From: a virus
UHGV virus genome: UHGV-0137329
Length of the DNA stretch: 10,048 bases
Reading direction: 5' to 3' (one strand)
Positions 32 through 10,048 of this stretch are shown here, in pieces (the stretch's first letter is position 1; the number at the start of each line of letters is the position of its first letter). The position numbers were made by a program, and so were the translations under genes. The notes under the pieces are model-generated. The model was not told where the DNA came from, searched no databases, and saw only the letters and a list, made by a program, of their open reading frames with translations.

Positions 32-1027
32 TTATGGACGCATTATGGACATTCCTGACACCGGGTTAAGAGTCACAGCATCTTGTAAGAAATCCGGTGC
101 AAAGTGTGCGTAGGTCATAGTTTGCTGAATGTTAGAATGACCCAGGATGCGCTGCAATGTGATTATGTTACCTCCATTCATTATAAAATGTGTGGCAAAT
201 GTATGCCTCAAAACATGCACTGCCTGTCCGTCAGGTAAATCGGGTTTTACTTCCCTGAGAGCGTTGCGCACTTTGTAGTAACTGGCATTAAAAAGCCTGC
301 CTGAGTTTTTGGTCTTGATCCGTTTAATCAGGTCCTGCGAAACGGGAATTGTCCTGCGCTTTCCGTTTTTAGTTTTCATAAACGTAACCATCTGGTTAAT
401 GATGTGTTCAGCTTTTAAATTAGACACTTCACTCCAGCGTCCACCAGTAGAAAGGCAGACCAGAGTCGCATTTAATTCATCACCATCGAGCATGGATAAC
501 AGCCGTGTAATCTCTTCACTGGACAAAAAAGCCATTTCTGTAACAGCTTCACGTAATCGCTTAACCTCACGGAACGGGTTGTGAGAATGGTATTCACCGG
601 CGTCAATTAACTTGGTGAACATCCCGCTCATTATTGCCAGATGCCGATTTACGCTGGCTGGTTTTAGACCATCGTTCATCATTACAACGCGATAATCAGT
701 TATCGTTTTCTTTGTTAGCTGGTCAGCTCTGGACACTCCCATTTCTGCAAATTTGGCGATTATTGTCGTCAAACGCCCCCGTTCAATATCTCCACGCTCA
801 TGTGATTTTCCGTGATATATCCACCATCTGCCTAACAACTCTGTAAGAGTTCGGCGGTCGGCTGGCTTCTCCAGCCACTCTTTGTTGTGGTAGTTAACCA
901 GTACATGACGTTCGAATGCTTGAGCTTCACCTTTAGTTTTAAATTTCCGCCTGATACGTTTTCCATCTGCACCCTGCGGTCTGACGTCCACTTCATAACG
1001 ACCATCATCGAGCTTTTTAATAGACAT
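32..1027 (-). CDS. int: Phage tyrosine integrase (site-specific recombinase), P2-family
   Basis: 331-aa ORF with stop TAA at 32-34 (minus). C-terminal catalytic region HVLRHTFATHF...LGHSNIQQTMTYAHF carries the tyrosine-recombinase H-x-x-R ... H ... Y signature. Sits immediately downstream of the repressor gene on the same strand, as in P2. Confidence 0.9.
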   Translation of the reverse strand: MSIKKLDDGRYEVDVRPQGADGKRIRRKFKTKGEAQAFERHVLVNYHNKEWLEKPADRRTLTELLGRWWIYHGKSHERGDIERGRLTTIIAKFAEMGVSRADQLTKKTITDYRVVMMNDGLKPASVNRHLAIMSGMFTKLIDAGEYHSHNPFREVKRLREAVTEMAFLSSEEITRLLSMLDGDELNATLVCLSTGGRWSEVSNLKAEHIINQMVTFMKTKNGKRRTIPVSQDLIKRIKTKNSGRLFNASYYKVRNALREVKPDLPDGQAVHVLRHTFATHFIMNGGNIITLQRILGHSNIQQTMTYAHFAPDFLQDAVTLNPVSGMSIMRP

Positions 1028-1120: not shown

Positions 1121-1432
1121 TCAGCCAGTCTTTTGGTCTGAGTGGTGCAAGGTTGTTGAGTCTTGCCCAATGTGCGCGAGCGCCGGGGCTATTTGTCCGC
1201 CAGCGGGATCAGTTTCATCAAACATGAACCAGTCACGGTACTTGCGAAATCTTTCTGGCTTGAAAAATTTCATGCCTGCGTCAAAAGACATCTTTACTTT
1301 TCCCTGCTCATATCCAGCATAGGTGTTGTAGTTAATTCCAGTTAATTCAGCAACTTGCTTCCTTGTCATTCTTTCTGACTCCCGAATAAGTGCGAGTTTC
1401 TCTGCTTGAGATGTGATTTGTGTATTTGACAT
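1121..1432 (-). CDS. C: P2-type immunity repressor C
   Basis: 103-aa ORF, ATG at 1430-1432 (minus), stop TGA at 1121-1123. The C-terminal ...GQIAPALAH.GQ....HHSDQKTG closely matches my recollection of the P2 C repressor (99 aa). It is divergent from the cox-like gene. Confidence 0.85.
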   Translation of the reverse strand: MSNTQITSQAEKLALIRESERMTRKQVAELTGINYNTYAGYEQGKVKMSFDAGMKFFKPERFRKYRDWFMFDETDPAGGQIAPALAHIGQDSTTLHHSDQKTG

Positions 1433-1549
1433 GAATTGTCTTATCTCGTAATTTATGTTGCATGCGACACGTCAGAACAACGCAGAGCTGCTTCAAATAG
1501 CTCTGGTTGAATGGCACCAAAGTTGAGGATATCAAAATGAGTATTGGAA
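1433..1549. promoter_or_regulatory. Lysis/lysogeny switch region between C and cox (expected Pc/Pe promoters and repressor operators)
   Basis: 117-bp intergenic region between divergent repressor and cox genes. It contains a 7-bp inverted repeat CAGAGCT(9 nt)AGCTCTG at 1483-1505 and a candidate rightward -35/-10 pair, TTGAAT at 1506-1511 and TATCAA at 1529-1534, 17-bp spacer. Exact promoter and operator positions were not determined. Confidence 0.4.
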
Positions 1550-1888
1550 ATGAATAACGATGTTGGAGAAAAAGTATCTGATCTCACAAAAAGTAAAAAA
1601 TGTGACATCAAACTTGCAGCCGCACCGTCGGATTTGCTCTCGAAAGAGGGATTTGCTCTTTACATCGGTAAGACGCCTCGTGCTGTTGCTGAAATGGCGA
1701 AAGCAGGCAAGTTACCAGCCTTTTATATGACGGACCCATTAAAGCCGGGCGGTCATGCTGAGTTATGGATTAATCGCCGTGAGTGGGACAGGTACGCAGC
1801 CCAACTAGTTGATGAAGCTCCGACAGAATGGCATGACTGGAAAAATCGCATTAGTTACAGCAAATCAAGACATGGCCGTGCGGCTTAA
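1550..1888 (+). CDS. cox: Cox-like excisionase / transcriptional regulator
   Basis: The central segment FALYIGKTPRAVAEMAKAGKLPAFYMTDP aligns with the P2 Cox segment as I recall it (FAKLIGKSTGAVRRMIDKGKLPVIDMTDP). First gene of the rightward early operon. The track ORF starts at TTG 1544; the first in-frame ATG is 1550. The N-terminus is longer than P2 Cox, so the true start is uncertain. Confidence 0.75.
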   Translation: MNNDVGEKVSDLTKSKKCDIKLAAAPSDLLSKEGFALYIGKTPRAVAEMAKAGKLPAFYMTDPLKPGGHAELWINRREWDRYAAQLVDEAPTEWHDWKNRISYSKSRHGRAA

Positions 1889-1898
1889 GGTGGAAAGG

Positions 1899-2069
1899 AT
1901 GAACGAGCCTCGTTGTATTGCTCAGCTATTGCGTAATGAAAGCCCCAGGGCGATTGACTTCACCATCACCCACGGTAAGGGGCGTAAGGGAATCATTATC
2001 CGCACCAAAAAACAGAGTCCGTTAAAGAAGGCTCTGACCTTTCTGAAAAGCCGGAGGGTATGGAAATGA
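1899..2069 (+). CDS. Small hypothetical protein (position of P2 orf78)
   Basis: In-frame ATG at 1899 preceded by AGGTGG (1888-1893), directly after the cox stop (1886-1888). About 56 aa; stop TGA at 2067-2069 overlaps the B start. The track ORF begins further upstream (1809) inside cox, which is unlikely to be the real start. Confidence 0.45.
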   Translation: MNEPRCIAQLLRNESPRAIDFTITHGKGRKGIIIRTKKQSPLKKALTFLKSRRVWK

Positions 2070-2566
2070 CAGTGATGACGCTCAATCTCGTTGAAAAACA
2101 GCCAGCAGCTATGCGCCGGATAATTGGTAAGCATCTTGCCGTTCCTCGCTGGCAGGATACATGTGATTATTATAATCAGATGATGGAGCGCGAACGGTTA
2201 ACGGTTTGCTTCCATGCTCAGTTAAAACAGCGTCACGCAACGATGCGTTTTGAAGAAATGAACGACGTCGAACGTGAACGACTGGTATGTGCAATTGATG
2301 AATTGCGTGATGCATTCTCAAAACGCCGTCAGGTTGGCGCAAGTGAGTATGCATATATTAGTTTTTTAACAGTCAGTCAGCGTCGTACTTTATTTATGCA
2401 TGCCGGATTGACTGAAAAAGAATTCAACCAGCCATACTGGCGAATTAATGAAGAGTCATGTTACTGGCGTGATGCTTTATTCCGTGCATTACGTGAATTA
2501 TTCAGTCTGTTTGAGTATGCACCGACAATTCTGACGTCGGTAAAACCAGAGCAATATCTGCATTAA
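2060..2566 (+). CDS. B: Replication protein B-like (helicase-loader in P2)
   Basis: 168-aa ORF, ATG at 2060 with GGAGGG 2 nt upstream (2053-2058). Size and position (after cox/orf78, before orf80-83 and A) match P2 gene B (166 aa). Assignment rests mainly on synteny and size. Confidence 0.65.
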   Translation: MEMTVMTLNLVEKQPAAMRRIIGKHLAVPRWQDTCDYYNQMMERERLTVCFHAQLKQRHATMRFEEMNDVERERLVCAIDELRDAFSKRRQVGASEYAYISFLTVSQRRTLFMHAGLTEKEFNQPYWRINEESCYWRDALFRALRELFSLFEYAPTILTSVKPEQYLH

Positions 2567-3380: not shown

Positions 3381-3652
3381 GTATTCGTATTGAAATTGGC
3401 GAACGTTATGTCGTTACCAGTGACAGCTTTCAGTTTATTCTCCACGAGAAAAAGAGAGCGGAAAGCGGTAAAAACGCCGGTCAGGAATGGCTGGCGGTGG
3501 TTGGTTATTACCCGAAATTAAGCCAGCTCGTTTCCGGCCTGATGCATCACGATATTCTGACCGGAAGCGCAAAGTCTTTTGCTGATTTAAACGCGCAGGT
3601 TGAGCAACTCAGCAAGCGTTGTTCAGAGGCTTTTGGCTCATATGACCGTTAA
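3377..3652 (+). CDS. Hypothetical early-operon protein (position of P2 orf83)
   Basis: 91-aa ORF, ATG at 3377 with GGAG at 3365-3368. Its 3' end overlaps the A start by 11 nt. Confidence 0.6.
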   Translation: MSIRIEIGERYVVTSDSFQFILHEKKRAESGKNAGQEWLAVVGYYPKLSQLVSGLMHHDILTGSAKSFADLNAQVEQLSKRCSEAFGSYDR

Positions 3653-5813
3653 AGCCTCCGGGCATTTTGTCCCTCCGTCAGCATTTGCCGCAGGCACCGG
3701 TGAGACGTTTACCGGTGCTTATGCATGGAACGCGCCACGCGAGGCCGTCGGGCGCGAAAGACCCCTTACACGTGACGAGATGCGTCAGGTGCAAGGTGTT
3801 TTATCCACGATTAACCGCCTGCCTTACTTTTTGCGCTCGCTGTTTACTTCACGCTATGACTACATCCGGCGCAATAAAAGCCCGGTGCGCGGGTTTTATT
3901 TCCTCACATCCACTTTTCAGCGTCGTTTATGGCCGCGCATTGAGCGTGTGAATCAGCGCCATGAAATGAACACCGACGCGTCGTTGCTGTTTCTGGCAGA
4001 GCGTGACCACTATGCGCGCCTGCCGGGAATGAATGACAAGGAGCTGAAAAAGTTTGCCGCCCGTATCTCATCGCAGCTTTTCATGATGTATGAGGAACTC
4101 AGCGATGCCTGGGTGGATGCACATGGCGAAAAAGAATCGCTGTTTACGGATGAGGCGCAGGCTCACCTCTATGGTCATGTTGCTGGCGCTGCACGTGCTT
4201 TCAATATTTCCCCGCTTTACTGGAAAAAATACCGTAAAGGACAGATGACCACGAGGCAGGCATATTCTGCCATTGCCCGTCTGTTTAACGATGAGTGGTG
4301 GACTCATCAGCTCAAAGGCCAGCGTATGCGCTGGCATGAGGCGTTACTGATTGCTGTCGGGGAGGTGAATAAAGACCGTTCTCCTTATGCCAGTAAACAT
4401 GCCATTCGTGATGTGCGTGCACGCCGCCAGGCAAATCTGGAATTTCTTAAATCGTGTGACCTTGAAAACAGGGAAACCGGCGAGCGCATCGACCTTATCA
4501 GTAAGGTGATGGGCAGTATTTCTAATCCTGAAATTCGCCGGATGGAGCTGATGAACACCATTGCCGGTATTGAGCGTTACGCCGCCGCAGAGGGTGATGT
4601 GGGGATGTTTATCACGCTTACCGCGCCGTCAAAGTATCACCCGACACGTCAGGTCGGAAAAGGCGAAAGTAAAACCGTCCAGCTAAATCACGGCTGGAAC
4701 GATGAGGCATTTAATCCAAAGGATGCGCAGCGTTATCTCTGCCATATCTGGAGCCTGATGCGCACGGCATTCAAGGATAATGATTTACAGGTCTACGGTT
4801 TGCGTGTCGTCGAGCCACACCACGACGGAACGCCGCACTGGCATATGATGCTTTTTTGTAATCCACGCCAGCGTAACCAGATTATCGAAATCATGCGTCG
4901 CTATGCGCTCAAAGAGGATGGCGACGAAAGAGGAGCCGCGCGAAACCGTTTTCAGGCAAAACACCTTAACCAGGGCTGTGCTGCGGGGTATATCGCGAAA
5001 TACATCTCAAAAAACATCGATGGCTATGCACTGGATGGTCAGCTCGATAACGATACCGGCAGACCGCTGAAAGACACTGCTGCGGCTGTTACCGCATGGG
5101 CGTCAACGTGGCGCATCCCACAATTTAAAACGGTTGGTCTGCCGACAATGGGGGCTTACCGTGAACTACGAAAATTGCCTCGCGGCGTCAGCATTGCTGA
5201 TGAGTTTGACGAGCGAGTCGAGGCTGCACGCGCCGCCGCAGACAGTGGTGATTTTGCGTTGTATATCAGCGCGCAGGGTGGGGCAAATGTCCCGCGCGAT
5301 TGTCAGACTGTCAGGGTCGCCCGTAGTCCGTCGGATGAAGTTAACGAGTACGAGGAAGAAGTCGAGAGAGTGGTCGGCATTTACGCGCCGCATCTCGGCG
5401 CGCGTCATATTCATATCACCAGAACGACGGACTGGCGCATTGTGCCGAAAGTTCCGGTCGTTGAGCCTTTGACTTTAAAAAGCGGCATCGCCGCGCCTCG
5501 GAGTCCTGTCAATAACTGTGGAAAGTTCACCGGCGGTGACGTTCCGGTTATGCACCCTACACCGTCTGAGCATGCCGCAGCGGTGTTAAATCTGGTTGAT
5601 AGTGGTGTTATCGGATGGGATGACCCGGAAGTTGTGACGGTGCTCAGGAGTGCATTAAAACATGGTGCACCGAGACCGAATTGGCAACAAAGAAACTGCG
5701 AACCATTAAAACCGTACCAGATAGCGCCATCAGGGCGGATGACAAAGGCTGAACGTTCGCAGATTCCACGCATCCATTTCGAGCTGGCACTAATTGGTAA
5801 AACCTATCAATAG
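3642..5813 (+). CDS. A: Rolling-circle replication initiator / endonuclease gpA
   Basis: About 723 aa from ATG 3642 (the track starts at an in-frame TTG at 3600). Contains the HUH motif (PHWHMMLF) and the paired active-site tyrosines (AGYIAKYISKN) typical of the P2 A nickase. The N-terminus MTVKASGHFVPPSAFAAGTG... matches my recollection of P2 gpA. Stop TAG at 5811-5813. Confidence 0.92.
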   Translation: MTVKASGHFVPPSAFAAGTGETFTGAYAWNAPREAVGRERPLTRDEMRQVQGVLSTINRLPYFLRSLFTSRYDYIRRNKSPVRGFYFLTSTFQRRLWPRIERVNQRHEMNTDASLLFLAERDHYARLPGMNDKELKKFAARISSQLFMMYEELSDAWVDAHGEKESLFTDEAQAHLYGHVAGAARAFNISPLYWKKYRKGQMTTRQAYSAIARLFNDEWWTHQLKGQRMRWHEALLIAVGEVNKDRSPYASKHAIRDVRARRQANLEFLKSCDLENRETGERIDLISKVMGSISNPEIRRMELMNTIAGIERYAAAEGDVGMFITLTAPSKYHPTRQVGKGESKTVQLNHGWNDEAFNPKDAQRYLCHIWSLMRTAFKDNDLQVYGLRVVEPHHDGTPHWHMMLFCNPRQRNQIIEIMRRYALKEDGDERGAARNRFQAKHLNQGCAAGYIAKYISKNIDGYALDGQLDNDTGRPLKDTAAAVTAWASTWRIPQFKTVGLPTMGAYRELRKLPRGVSIADEFDERVEAARAAADSGDFALYISAQGGANVPRDCQTVRVARSPSDEVNEYEEEVERVVGIYAPHLGARHIHITRTTDWRIVPKVPVVEPLTLKSGIAAPRSPVNNCGKFTGGDVPVMHPTPSEHAAAVLNLVDSGVIGWDDPEVVTVLRSALKHGAPRPNWQQRNCEPLKPYQIAPSGRMTKAERSQIPRIHFELALIGKTYQ

Positions 5814-5843
5814 TGATTTAATGAAATTTCGGAGTCATAAATA

Positions 5844-5916
5844 TTGTGTATTTAACTAGATGATTGCAATATAAGTGCTTATTATTTATGCGATTATAGC
5901 CATAACGGAGCTGAGT
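5844..5916 (+). promoter_or_regulatory. Putative promoter/RBS region upstream of the hotspot cargo gene
   Basis: AT-rich spacer after the A stop. Candidate -10 TATAAG at 5870-5875 with a weak -35 (TGTATT at 5847-5852, 17-bp spacer). RBS ACGGAG at 5905-5910, 6 nt before ATG 5917. Promoter elements are weak matches and not verified. Confidence 0.3.
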
Positions 5917-6822
5917 ATGAGTGTTGCAAGGCATCATCATTTTTTATCCCAATGTTATTTGAAAGGGTTTACAAGTAATGGGGGGAAAAAATCAAAATTA
6001 ACTGTAATAGATTTAAAGGAGCGCAAAACCTTTGAGAGTAATACTCGCAATGTCGGGGGGGTTAGAGATTTCAACCGATTAGAATTGGATGGAGTTGACC
6101 CAAACTATCTCGAGAGTTCTCTTGCAGAGTTTGAAGGCAGTGTCGCTACTCATTTAAGAAAACTTGAGGAGGGGGGCGAGTTTTCAGGCGAAACCAAAGA
6201 TGTTATTCTGGAGTTTATTTCCTTATTGGCAATACGTACGCCTGCTCAGCGAGAACATTTATCATCTCCATTGAAACAAATAGCAAAGTTTATCATGAAA
6301 TCCTCAGTTAGTTCGGCTGAGCGTTGGGACGATTGCAAATTAGCTTATGAGAAAGAAATGGGTGAGTCTTTGCCATATGATCTCGCTTACGAAAAAATTA
6401 AAAATTTTGTGGATGGGGATAATTTCGAAATCAATGTAATCAGAGAGTTCATGATAGATATGGAAATGAAATGTGTACCTGTTATCACCAAGTTGTTGCA
6501 TCAACGCAACTGGTCACTTATGACCATATCTGATGGGCAAGGGTCATTTATAACTTCAGATAACCCAGTTTGCTTAATGTGGACTAATCCTGAATTAGCA
6601 CGAGGCCCTTATTCCCCCGGGTTTGGTGTAAAAGACACTTTAGTTTTGTTCCCAGTATCAAAAAACCTTCTTTTGGCGGGCGAGTTTGATGGTCATGAGG
6701 GTGTATTCAGTTGTAATGAGGAGCAGGCTGCGGTCTTCAATACTTCAGTCATTCGGCATACCGCAGAAAGAATATTTTCATCTAATGATAATTTCAAATT
6801 TTTAGACTCATCTAAAAAATGA
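5917..6822 (+). CDS. Hotspot cargo gene: DUF4238-like protein of unknown function, candidate anti-phage defence / superinfection-exclusion protein
   Basis: About 301 aa from ATG 5917 (the track starts at GTG 5875, which has no RBS). N-terminal motif MSVARHHHFLSQCYLKGF matches the HH-x-x-P/S-Q-x-YL-K/R-x-F signature I associate with Pfam DUF4238, a family of roughly 280-315 aa. Sampled lines are about 40% GC against mid-50s% in the flanking phage core. It occupies the A-to-cos slot where P2 carries orf91/tin/old. No Walker, HEPN, nuclease or transmembrane signature is evident by eye. Confidence 0.7.
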   Translation: MSVARHHHFLSQCYLKGFTSNGGKKSKLTVIDLKERKTFESNTRNVGGVRDFNRLELDGVDPNYLESSLAEFEGSVATHLRKLEEGGEFSGETKDVILEFISLLAIRTPAQREHLSSPLKQIAKFIMKSSVSSAERWDDCKLAYEKEMGESLPYDLAYEKIKNFVDGDNFEINVIREFMIDMEMKCVPVITKLLHQRNWSLMTISDGQGSFITSDNPVCLMWTNPELARGPYSPGFGVKDTLVLFPVSKNLLLAGEFDGHEGVFSCNEEQAAVFNTSVIRHTAERIFSSNDNFKFLDSSKK

Positions 6823-6980
6823 AGCAAGGCAAAAGCCTGGTTTGATAGCGGTTTTTCTATGATTTTACTAGGAGAATTCTACCCTTAATCAGTGTGTTTA
6901 AAATGATTAATTGTCATAACATTTTTTCATTTTTAGGTGTGCCTAGAAATGCATTCAATTGCATGCGTTTTCCTCCCCTG

Positions 6981-6994
6981 TTGCGTCTGAGCGC
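6981..6994 (+). repeat. 14-bp direct repeat, copy 1 (TTGCGTCTGAGCGC), upstream of cos
   Basis: Exact 14-mer, also present at 7209-7222. The two copies flank the cos 19-mer. Confidence 0.6.
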
Positions 6995-7060
6995 CACCAG
7001 TGCCGGCGCGCCTCCGGTGTATTCGTGCACCTGCATTAAAACCGACCCATAAAGCGGGCA

Positions 7061-7079
7061 GGCGAGGCGGGGATAGCAC
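7061..7079 (+). other. cos cohesive-end site (19-nt overhang region), P2-type
   Basis: GGCGAGGCGGGGATAGCAC differs at one position from the P2 cohesive-end sequence as I recall it (GGCGAGGCGGGGAAAGCAC). It lies between the accessory slot and Q, where cos sits in P2-like genomes. Confidence 0.55.
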
Positions 7080-7166
7080 TGCGCGCAATTGTTCATTTTG
7101 TCATATATGTAATTTGATTTGAGTAACTATCCGCATATTGTTAACGGACAAATTATTATAACTGGA

Positions 7167-7191
7167 GTTGGCCACATTTTATGTGGCCAAC
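7167..7191. repeat. Perfect palindrome: 11-bp arms, 3-nt spacer (GTTGGCCACAT ttt ATGTGGCCAAC)
   Basis: Verified base by base: the arms are exact reverse complements. It sits in an AT-rich segment between cos and Q. No U-tract follows on either strand, so it is more likely a protein-binding site or structural element than a terminator. Confidence 0.6.
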
Positions 7192-7208
7192 GTAACGGCG
7201 TGGTAGTG

Positions 7209-7222
7209 ACAGTTTTTTTGCG
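7209..7222 (+). repeat. 14-bp direct repeat, copy 2 (TTGCGTCTGAGCGC), downstream of cos
   Basis: Exact copy of 6981-6994, preceded by a T7 run. Confidence 0.6.
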
Positions 7223-7326
7223 TCTGAGCGCGTCGTGATGGCATTTAGTCGGCCTGCCGGGGCGTTGGTGTGTCTGCGGGGTGTTTTGTGCGGTGGTGAG
7301 CGTGTGAGGCCGTGATGACGGGGTGT

Positions 7327-7348
7327 AAAAAAGCCGCCCGCAGGCGGC
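7327..7348 (-). terminator. Rho-independent terminator of the P-Q packaging operon
   Basis: On the minus strand: GC-only 6-bp stem GCCGCC / GGCGGC (7333-7348) with a 4-nt loop, followed by a T6 run (complement of A6 at 7327-7332). It begins 5 nt after the Q stop codon (7354-7356). Confidence 0.7.
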
Positions 7349-7353
7349 GATGT

Positions 7354-8388
7354 TCAGCCGTTGTCAGTGTCCAGTGAGTAGTTTTTAAAGCGGATGACCT
7401 CCTGACCGAGCCAGCCGTTTATCTCGCGGATCCTGTCCTGTAGCGGGATAAGCTCATTGCGGACAAAGACCTTTGCCACTTTCTCAATATCACCCAGCGA
7501 CCCGACGTTCTCCGGCTTGCCGCCCATCAACTGAAAGGGGATGCGGTGCGCATCCAGCAGGTCAGCGGCGCTGGCTTTTTTGATATTAAAAAAATCGTCC
7601 TTCGTCGCCACTTCACTGAGCGGGATAATTTTAATGCCGTCGGCTTTCCCCTGCGGGGCATAGAGAAACAGGTTTTTAAAGTTGTTGCGGCCTTTCGACT
7701 TCACCATGTTTTCGCGAAGCATTTCGATATCGTTGCGATCCTGCACGGCATCGGTGACGTACATGATGTATCCGGCATGTGCGCCGTTTTCGTAATACTT
7801 GCGGCGGAACAGCGTGGCCGACTCATTCAGCCAGGCAGAGTTAAGGGCGCTGAGATATTCCGGCAGGCCGTACAGCTCCTGATTAATATCGGGCTCCAGC
7901 AGGTGAAACACGGAGCCGGGCGTGAAGGCTGTCGGCTCGTTGAAGGACGGCACCCACCAGTAAACATCCTCCTCCACGCCACGGCGGGTATATTTTGCCG
8001 GTGAGGTTTCCAGTCTGATGACCTTACCGGTGGTGCTGTAACGCTTTTCCAGAAACGCATTACCGAACACCAGAAAATCCAGCACAAAGCGGCTGAAATC
8101 CTGCTGGGAAAGCCACGGATGCGGGATAAATGTCGAGGCCAGAATATTGCGTTTGACGTAAATCGGTGAGCTGTGATGCACGGCAGCACGCAGGCTTTTT
8201 GCCAGACCGGTAAAGCTGACCGGTGGCTCATACCATCTGCCGTTACTGATGCACTCGACGTAATCCAGAATGTCACGGCGGTCGAGTACCGGCACCGGCT
8301 CACCAAAGGTGAATGCCTCCATTTTCGGGGCGCTGGCGGTCATTTTTTTTGCCGCAGGTTGCGGTGTTTTCCCTTTTTTCTTGCTCAT
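7354..8388 (-). CDS. Q: Capsid portal protein gpQ
   Basis: 344-aa ORF, the same length as P2 gpQ. The lysine-rich N-terminus MSKKKGKTPQPAAKK is consistent with the P2 portal. Its start overlaps the P stop (TGATG arrangement on the minus strand at 8386-8390). Transcribed toward cos, as in P2. Confidence 0.9.
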   Translation of the reverse strand: MSKKKGKTPQPAAKKMTASAPKMEAFTFGEPVPVLDRRDILDYVECISNGRWYEPPVSFTGLAKSLRAAVHHSSPIYVKRNILASTFIPHPWLSQQDFSRFVLDFLVFGNAFLEKRYSTTGKVIRLETSPAKYTRRGVEEDVYWWVPSFNEPTAFTPGSVFHLLEPDINQELYGLPEYLSALNSAWLNESATLFRRKYYENGAHAGYIMYVTDAVQDRNDIEMLRENMVKSKGRNNFKNLFLYAPQGKADGIKIIPLSEVATKDDFFNIKKASAADLLDAHRIPFQLMGGKPENVGSLGDIEKVAKVFVRNELIPLQDRIREINGWLGQEVIRFKNYSLDTDNG

Positions 8389-10048
8389 CAGTAAAACTCC
8401 AGAATGGTGGATGTCAGCGGGGTGCTGATACCGGCGGTGAGTGGCTCATTTAACAGGGCGTGCATGGTCGCCCAGGCGAGGTCGGCGTGGCTGGCTTCCT
8501 CGCTGCGGCTGGCCTCATAGGTGGCACTGCGTCCGCTGCTGGTCATGGTCTTGCGGATAGCCATAAACGAGCTGGTGATGTCGGTGGCGCTGACGTCATA
8601 TTCCAGACAGCCACGGCGGATAACGTCTTTTGCCTTGAGCACCATTGCGGTTTTCATTTCCGGCGTGTAGCGGATATCGCGCGCGGCGGGATAGAACGAG
8701 CGCACGAGCTGGAACACGCCGACACCGAGGCCGGTGGCATCAATACCGATGTATTCGACGTTATATTTTTCGGTGAGTTTGCGGATGGATTCAGCCTGAG
8801 TGGCAAAGTCCATGCCTTTCCACTGGTGACGCTCAAGTATTCTGAATTTGCCACCGGCCACCACCGGCGGTGCCAGCACCACGCATCCGGCGCTGTCGCC
8901 ACGGTGTGACGGGTCGTAACCAATCCATACCGGGCGGGAACCGAACGGATTGGCGGCAAAGGGTGCATAGTCTTCCCATTCTTCCAGCGTGTCGACCATG
9001 CAGCGTTGCAACTCCTCGAACGGGAACACCGACGCCTTGTCGTCAACAAATTCACACATGAACAGGTTTTTAAAATCGTCGGCGCTGTTTTCGCGTTTGA
9101 GCTGTTCAATGTCGAACAGCGTGCAGCCACCTTTCAGGGCGTCCTCAATGGTGACAATCTGCCGCCACTGGCCGTCTGCACAGAGAAGCCCACCGGCAAG
9201 GGCGTTATGACTGACGTCGATTTCCACGCGTTCGGCGGCGCTGGCGCGTCCCCGGTTGAACAGTTCACCCGACCAGAACGGGTAGGCGTCGTGCGCCAGC
9301 GTGGACGGGGTGGAGAAATAGGTCGAGCGCAGGTGACTCTGTGAGGCCATACCTGATGCCACCTTACGCAGCACCTGAAAATTCGGGATCCAGAAAATCT
9401 CGTCGACGTACAGGTCGCCGTTATGGCTCTGCGCAGTGTTGGAGTTTGTGCCGAGAAAAATCAGTTTTGCGCCGTTATTGCCCAGGACAATCGGGTCACC
9501 GGTCAGGTCAACGTCAACCAGACGGGCAAAGGCGATGATGTATTCACGGAACACATACGCCTGCGTTTTACTGGCCGACAGAAAAATCTGGTTATGGCCG
9601 GTTTTCAGGGCGCGCAGCAGCGCCTCGCGGGAAAAATAAAACGTTGCGCCAATCTGGCGGGATTTCAGGATATCGCGGATGCGGTGCTCAAGCCCGGCGC
9701 GATACCAGTACAACTGATATTCGAAAGACTGCTCAAAGAAAATCTGCTCCAGCTTTTCGATGGCCTCGTCACTGAAAAAATTCTTTTTCGGTTTGCGCCG
9801 CCCGCCTTTGTTGCGGTTAGCGACGTTCGGATTAAGGTCTGCCTCGTTGCCGGTCTGGCTGTAGCGGTTTACCCGTGCCAGTCGTTCAATCTGGCGTCCC
9901 AGCAGGTCAATTTCCTTGAAATCACCGCCGGTTTTCTGCGGTTTGATGATGAGCTGGGTCAGTCGCGCTTCCAGACTCATTTCGACACGGCTGATGGGGG
10001 CAACGCTGTCCCAGCCGTCGCGCTGTTTCCAGCTCTGCACCGTCGGGC
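8388..10048 (-). CDS. P: Terminase large (ATPase) subunit gpP, 5'-partial: N-terminus lies beyond the window end
   Basis: Open reading frame runs from the window edge to stop TGA at 8388-8390 (at least 550 aa in window; P2 gpP is about 590 aa). It is immediately upstream of Q in the same orientation. The M at 10040 in the track is a GTG and probably an internal valine. Confidence 0.88.
   Translation of the reverse strand, partial: PTVQSWKQRDGWDSVAPISRVEMSLEARLTQLIIKPQKTGGDFKEIDLLGRQIERLARVNRYSQTGNEADLNPNVANRNKGGRRKPKKNFFSDEAIEKLEQIFFEQSFEYQLYWYRAGLEHRIRDILKSRQIGATFYFSREALLRALKTGHNQIFLSASKTQAYVFREYIIAFARLVDVDLTGDPIVLGNNGAKLIFLGTNSNTAQSHNGDLYVDEIFWIPNFQVLRKVASGMASQSHLRSTYFSTPSTLAHDAYPFWSGELFNRGRASAAERVEIDVSHNALAGGLLCADGQWRQIVTIEDALKGGCTLFDIEQLKRENSADDFKNLFMCEFVDDKASVFPFEELQRCMVDTLEEWEDYAPFAANPFGSRPVWIGYDPSHRGDSAGCVVLAPPVVAGGKFRILERHQWKGMDFATQAESIRKLTEKYNVEYIGIDATGLGVGVFQLVRSFYPAARDIRYTPEMKTAMVLKAKDVIRRGCLEYDVSATDITSSFMAIRKTMTSSGRSATYEASRSEEASHADLAWATMHALLNEPLTAGISTPLTSTILEFY

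Follow-up and report, generated by a model that had tools for sequence, protein, structure and literature searches.

The question raised by this locus is what the lone gene between gene A and cos of a P2-like prophage does for its host, and whether the copy found here can still do it. Pfam matches and the annotation of Escherichia phage pro483 identify the DNA that we analysed (10,048 nucleotides, called the window throughout) as the left arm of a P2-like prophage (Peduovirus, pro483 type). A sequence-only reading of the window had proposed that the interval in which P2 carries orf91, tin and old is occupied by one unrelated gene of the DUF4238 family, a candidate anti-phage protein. The best explanation of the locus as a whole, which we regard as probable, is that the gene is swappable single-gene anti-phage cargo of the prophage, with combined sensor and effector functions proposed for its product.

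Organization of the prophage left arm

By megablast, pro483 is 97.6% identical to the window over 96% of its length, and its annotated gene order is identical to that in Table 1. The Pfam matches and this annotation bear out the earlier statement that the intervals from int to A and from cos to Q/P follow the order of P2. The start of gpA could be placed at 3600 or at 3639, the latter being equivalent to the start annotated in pro483. A terminator-like hairpin lies near Q (7348-7333). The core cos sequence GGCGAGGCGGGGATAGCAC at 7061-7079 is, we presume, the P2 cohesive end. It is one base apart from the sequence GGCGAGGCGGGGAAAGCAC of P4/P2 cos-proximal clones (PMC9122126).

Table 1. Features of the 10,048-nucleotide window, with the evidence for each
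Feature	Position	Strand	Evidence
int (integrase)	32-1027	-	Pfam, pro483 annotation
C (C-type HTH repressor)	1121-1432	-	Pfam, pro483 annotation
cox	1544-1888	+	Pfam, pro483 annotation
B	2060-2566	+	pro483 annotation/Pfam
Gene A (gpA), replication; left conserved hotspot border	3639-5813	+	Pfam Phage_GPA, E 3.2e-124
AT-rich intergenic spacer, gene A to cargo gene	5814-5916	+	Sequence; GGAG RBS at 5907-5910
DUF4238 (Rst_DUF4238-type) anti-phage gene, 301-aa truncated allele	5917-6822	+	Pfam, PADLOC, 92% identity to TA007, G+C
A6 homopolymer	6814-6819	+	Three-way DNA alignment
Out-of-frame remnant of native 3' end	6820-6845	+	Sequence compared with P0001; 930-nt CDS of pro483 and of GMM060
Core cos GGCGAGGCGGGGATAGCAC	7061-7079		Sequence
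105-nt insertion right of cos	7092-7196		Alignment with pro483 and GMM060
Q (gpQ, portal); right conserved hotspot border	7354-8388	-	Pfam Phage_portal, pro483 annotation
P (gpP, large terminase)	8388-10040	-	Pfam, pro483 annotation

No second credible gene was found in 5814-7353, as the sequence-only reading had supposed; some ORFs of 51-60 aa occur at 6894-7096, but these overlap cos. One of these, a 60-aa ORF at 6914-7096 on the minus strand that spans cos, gave a weak match to phrog_6595 (E 2e-4) and coincides partly with "ORF12 hypothetical protein" of pro483. Since it runs into the conserved DNA that flanks cos, this ORF is probably no real gene. An Rfam search of the whole window returned zero matches. 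A repeat scan of the slot detected an exact 14-nt direct repeat, TTGCGTCTGAGCGC, at 6981-6994 and 7218-7231, and otherwise none. The two copies bracket cos at about -80 and +140, and in pro483 the second copy differs in its first two bases; the repeat could be a terminase recognition element or could have arisen by chance.

Identity of the cargo gene

The G+C content of the cargo gene is 37-41%, whereas that of its flanks is 52-57%. In its longest form the ORF opens at GTG 5875, but translation probably begins at ATG 5917, with the GGAG sequence six bases upstream. This start is shared by pro483, RefSeq and the clone tested by experiment that is described below. The product of 301 aa begins with MSVARHHHFLSQCYLKGF and ends at the TGA at 6820-6822. 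Membership of DUF4238, which had been suggested from the N-terminus and the length of the protein, was established by the Pfam model PF14022 (E 3.8e-39, 135.2 bits against a cut-off of 27), with residues 7-291 aligned to profile positions 2-280 of 281, which is nearly the full length of the profile. The PADLOC model DUF4238-Pers (PDLC03000), a defence model, matched at E 6.3e-214, with residues 1-301 on positions 1-301 of 309, and PHROG 29785, a family of unassigned function, matched at E 1.8e-217. The protein carries all of the motifs conserved across the DUF4238 family, namely the N-terminal H-H-[YF]-L-S-Q-C-Y-L-x-G-F, the RDFNR loop, the RxW strand and F-I-T-S-D-N-P-V.

The sequence-only reading mentioned a report of a single-gene DUF4238 system that protects against phage, and such a report exists. 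Rousset et al. (2022; PMC9122126) cloned a single DUF4238 protein of E. coli TA007 from the P2 A-to-Q hotspot and observed strong T7 resistance; the clone, pFR101 (Table S2 of that paper, which gives the protein), was expressed from the native promoter. Later surveys name the system Rst_DUF4238 or DUF4238. The window gene shares with the TA007 gene its location in the gpA-gpQ hotspot, its single-gene organization, its start region and its ribosome-binding site, and 276 of the 301 residues are identical (92%) in an ungapped alignment. The two differ by 25 substitutions and in length, TA007 encoding 309 aa and the window lacking the last 8 residues. The window and the functional pFR101 clone have in common the block CATAAATATTGTGTATTTAACTAGATGATT and the start region TAACGGAGCTGAGTATG; beyond a shared block of about 30 nt the upstream spacers are divergent. 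The native promoter presumably lies in the spacer upstream of the cargo gene (5814-5916), but a promoter scan found no sigma-70 consensus there on the plus strand.

Taken with the matches above, these likenesses leave little doubt that 5917-6822 is the Rst_DUF4238 (PADLOC DUF4238-Pers) cargo of the hotspot. The system is already known and catalogued, and its hotspot is known as well; it is not a discovery. The closest relative, pro483 gp11 (YP_009211908.1, annotated as DUF4238 domain-containing), has the same gene DNA as the window save for one base, within a backbone that is about 97.6% identical, but it carries an A7 run, encodes 309 aa and lacks the 105-nt insertion to the right of cos. In P2 itself, the slot between A and cos holds old, tin and orf91, which likewise serve in prophage-borne exclusion of other phages (PMC9122126). 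The window protein is nevertheless unrelated to their products: neither Pfam nor PADLOC links it to Old, in agreement with the earlier reading. Protection by old-tin is broad, whereas T7 resistance alone is reported for DUF4238 in the available part of the same paper.

One rival view of the gene is that it has a role other than defence, such as that of a regulatory or fitness moron, and the same hotspot does host non-defence cargo, for example partitioning systems and the cdt toxin (PMC9122126), and about half of the related loci described below lie beside housekeeping genes, but we consider this view very improbable given that a 92% identical protein has direct experimental anti-T7 activity from its native promoter (PMC9122126) and that related copies repeatedly adjoin defence genes.

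Cargo turnover on both sides of cos

The interval between A and cos had been described as an established site of exchange for anti-phage systems, and the survey of Rousset et al. (PMC9122126), which counted 1,650 arrangements in 18,150 E. coli loci of the gpA-gpQ cos-proximal hotspot, agrees with this. We compared the slot across P2-like phages, and turnover was evident. Phages whose A and Q/P flanks are 96-97% identical to those of the window hold other cargo, including a reverse transcriptase (pro147), ParB-like, DUF4209 and Fic-type (vbhT) genes, ParaMORC3 with Dcm, cdt and cysH. The window cargo was present in 14 of the 1,587 complete E. coli genomes that matched some part of 5814-7353, and among 50,697 phage records a close relative was found in pro483 only. 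Because the content of the slot varies and the gene is rare in the matching genomes and phage records, it does not belong to the core of P2-like phages. The gene is swappable cargo of the gpA-to-gpQ cos-proximal hotspot.

The region to the right of cos carries a trace of a different cargo. The 105-nt insertion at 7092-7196 is absent from pro483 and from E. coli GMM060. Ten E. coli genomes, MS 16-3 among them, carry between cos and Q a gene for a hypothetical protein of 333 aa, and the segment at 7146-7230, which takes in the right half of the insertion and DNA beyond it, is 100% identical to the 3' end of this gene together with the DNA that follows it. The insertion also contains a perfect 10-bp hairpin, GTTGGCCACA-TTTTA-TGTGGCCAAC, at 7168-7192. 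Judged from these identities, the insertion is the probable scar of a lost cargo gene to the right of cos. Read in this way, the locus shows a hotspot active on both sides of cos, with the left cargo kept and the right cargo lost.

A related arrangement was seen in Kluyvera intermedia (locus L018, 4580-7942), where a stretch 97% identical to window 5496-7088 holds the 3' end of gene A and cos, with a DUF4238 gene between them that has the A7 run and is of full length. To the right of cos lies a gene for a 555-aa fusion of AAA_21 and DUF4435 (PARIS AriA-AriB-like). Because a yegS-like kinase gene upstream replaces the rest of gene A, L018 is a prophage remnant in which two defence genes were retained.

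DUF4238 cargo also occurs in a phage of another host. Smp131 gp44, from a Stenotrophomonas P2-like phage, shares the DUF4238 fold (Foldseek E 7.6e-11) and keeps the F-I-x-S-D-x-P motif, and it lies in the accessory region of this member of the Peduoviridae, between the early/integrase module and Q (L058, 30939-31835). It is, however, only 13% identical to the window protein and, as annotated, lacks the double-His motif. Since Smp131 represents another genus of the Peduoviridae, DUF4238 cargo near Q extends beyond the enterobacterial P2-like phages.

A one-base deletion removes the C-terminal tail

The length of about 301 aa noted in the earlier reading is correct for the window allele but is not the native length, which is 309 aa in pro483 and GMM060 (annotated CDS of 930 nt in each). 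The sole intragenic difference between the window and pro483 is a change from A7 to A6 in the run at 6814-6819, which brings the TGA into frame. The run is A7 in pro483 and E. coli GMM060, as determined by three-way DNA alignment, and also in Kluyvera L018. KKMKQGKSLV is the C-terminal sequence of the 309-aa protein P0001, and QKMRQGKSLV that of P0002, also of 309 aa; the window protein has lost the eight residues MKQGKSLV, whose coding DNA persists out of frame to position 6845. The last 8 positions of the PADLOC model (length 309) are unmatched by the window protein, which therefore falls short of a complete match. We also noted several other homopolymer runs in the gene, consisting of G6 followed by A6 (5980-5991), G7 (6055-6061) and G6 (6172-6177), in addition to the A6 at 6814-6819; such runs may make the gene prone to inactivation by slippage.

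We could rule out a sequencing error as the source of the A6 run, because at least 24 independent metagenome contigs, from several projects, encode precisely this 301-aa protein. In every case the distance to Q is 531 nt, as in the window. This recurrence indicates that the truncated allele is a persisting lineage and no sequencing artefact. A further form of the protein, P0003 (NCBI, E. coli, 245 aa, 26 member sequences), ends in SSKK, which is the same A6 truncation, and starts at an internal TTG that corresponds to L57 of the window protein. It hints at a second, N-terminal disruption in some genomes of the lineage.

Does the truncated allele still protect? One could envision that the window copy is a decaying, inactive allele, in which the deletion in the A run has removed a C-terminal strand that the structure needs. 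This is a serious possibility, although we rate it below an even chance. Of 260 family members, 98.5% continue past position 301 by 6 residues or more, 8 being the usual minimum, and the 260-member alignment shows conservation of two tail residues, G305 (78%) and L308 (68%). In the AlphaFold2 model of the 309-aa allele, tail residues 302-304 form a strand (pLDDT of about 94) that is paired in a hairpin with the strand at 294-296. Both strands are gone from the model of the 301-aa protein, as are the beta-bridges at residues 8 and 48. The additional damage suggested by the 245-aa form and the loss of the neighbouring cargo to the right of cos would fit decay as well. Against this, the overall confidence of the truncated model is unchanged (pLDDT 89.2, pTM 0.85), and the tail is the segment of highest entropy in the protein (2.74 bits). 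Moreover, the other 301 codons are intact, the gene DNA being otherwise that of pro483, and the recurrence of the exact protein at a constant distance from Q speaks against an allele in decay. On these grounds, we lean, by a little, toward the view that the truncated window allele is still protective.

Conservation and predicted fold

The family comprises 3,163 clusters at 50% identity (E below 1e-3). Conservation was assessed in 260 members, reaching down to about 30% identity. Five residues, E73, R112, R197, W199 and N275, are conserved in 100% of the members; E66, H8, H7, D215, D51 and E183 are conserved in 96-99%, and R50, D32 and R54 in 92-94%. Entropy is lowest in residues 1-20, 45-60 and 197-222, and the helical segments within 108-196 are among those with the highest. 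The triple-His cluster near the N-terminus had been singled out as a possible metal-binding or catalytic element. Two of its members, H7 and H8, are conserved at 97-98%, but H6 is found in only about 50% of the proteins, so that the conserved element is a pair rather than a triplet.

The structure prediction and fold search that had been recommended yielded a confident model of the 309-aa allele, with the same pLDDT (89.2) and pTM (0.85) as given above for the 301-aa form. In the model, a six-helix insertion (64-195) separates an N-terminal hairpin from a beta-rich C-terminal part. A Foldseek search against the PDB found no structural relative (best E 0.13, TM 0.12), and a sequence-profile search of the PDB was similarly negative (best E 0.32). 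In BFVD the sole match was Smp131 gp44, itself a DUF4238 protein. No NCBIfam model matched the window protein, and Pfam identified no domain in it besides DUF4238, which is in keeping with the earlier remark that no ATPase, nuclease, HEPN, TIR or membrane-spanning signature is visible.

Three candidate activities were considered and rejected. The spacing R107-x6-H114 resembles the R-x(4-6)-H motif that HEPN RNases conserve in a helical bundle, but H114 is present in only 112 of the 260 members and there is no HEPN match in Pfam. A PD-(D/E)xK nuclease centred on D32-x-K34 was ruled out since K34 varies. A transmembrane or membrane-disrupting effector was likewise ruled out, the highest hydropathy over 19 residues being 1.09.

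Genomic surroundings of related genes

We collected 40 related loci from a set with one genome per species, and in 38 of them ORFs were called and clustered. The only family that recurred in the 38 loci of different genera was DUF4238 itself, which rules out a conserved partner gene. The neighbours are heterogeneous. Defence genes seen as single instances include those of Dpd, PARIS, Thoeris (ThsA/ThsB), DRT and PsyrT as well as Cas1, and two further homologues were found, one beside GmrSD and a type I R subunit and the other beside an OLD-TOPRIM/UvrD pair (Gabija-like). Such varied surroundings fit a mobile, stand-alone defence gene. The window gene stands alone also in its own slot, where it is the only credible gene in 5814-7353.

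Discussion

The sequence-only reading knew of no mechanism for DUF4238, and none is described in the papers that mention DUF4238 up to mid-2026. We propose, tentatively, an enzymatic mechanism in which sensor and effector are combined; it is built on the conservation pattern and the predicted fold, and we hold it with less than even confidence. In the lysogen, the upstream region of the gene would drive its expression without reliance on the repressed early operon, a requirement for defence cargo in this slot, and the gene would protect the host, and with it the prophage, from T7-like phages. Its product would be self-contained and act alone. Its conserved alpha/beta core would be made up of the N-terminal 55 residues and residues 197-309. 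If the polar residues H7, H8, D32, R50, D51, R54, E66, E73, R112, E183, R197, D215 and N275 cluster in space, as we assume, they would form a putative metal- or phosphate-binding active site of this core, and the protein would then be an enzyme. We propose an enzyme because the conserved core has many invariant residues (Arg, Glu, Asp, His and Asn), which suggest a site of this type. The variable helical bundle (residues of about 108-196) would set or tune the phage cue that is recognized. A more far-reaching idea is that DUF4238 represents an unrecognized enzyme fold with no relative in the PDB, in which a new defence chemistry would be performed by the His-His/Asp/Glu/Arg/Asn cluster and T7-type sensing would reside in the same protein of about 300 residues. 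We regard this as rather doubtful.

Alternatively, DUF4238 might not be an enzyme at all, but a sensor or stoichiometric binder, which would either act directly to block a component of T7 or bring in an effector supplied by the host or a partner. Several observations are consistent with such a role. Of the eight phages in the panel, the available part of the report (PMC9122126) names T7 alone as being blocked by the TA007 protein, the helical bundle is variable across the family, and no known catalytic fold was detected. In addition, E. coli has a two-gene anti-phage system of TIR plus DUF4238 in which both genes and the TIR catalytic residue are required (PMC11350192). This system resembles the window gene in containing a validated anti-phage protein of the DUF4238 family, but it depends on a TIR protein whose NADase site is intact, whereas the window slot has no TIR gene. 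Because the two-gene system requires both of its genes, DUF4238 could be mainly a sensor or adaptor. However, about twelve charged or polar residues are 93-100% conserved in members down to 30% identity, a pattern that is more typical of active sites than of recognition surfaces, which evolve fast, and the 38 loci lack a conserved partner. We think, therefore, that a purely non-enzymatic role is unlikely.

What remains of interest is the mechanism, the orphan fold and the tail-less allele; there is little here to surprise a specialist, and the window makes the question of mechanism no more testable than the published clone does. For annotation, the gene should be labelled Rst_DUF4238, 3'-frameshifted, within the P2 hotspot. 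For the family, DUF4238 is one of the validated single-gene defences for which no mechanism has been published, and the searches gave it no structural relative. If DUF4238 is indeed a new enzyme fold of the kind outlined above, then the tail-less allele in natural circulation would supply a variant already at hand, either hypomorphic or changed in its regulation, with which to dissect the chemistry. The near-invariant residues, the lack of a partner gene and this natural tail-less allele offer starting points for the study of DUF4238.
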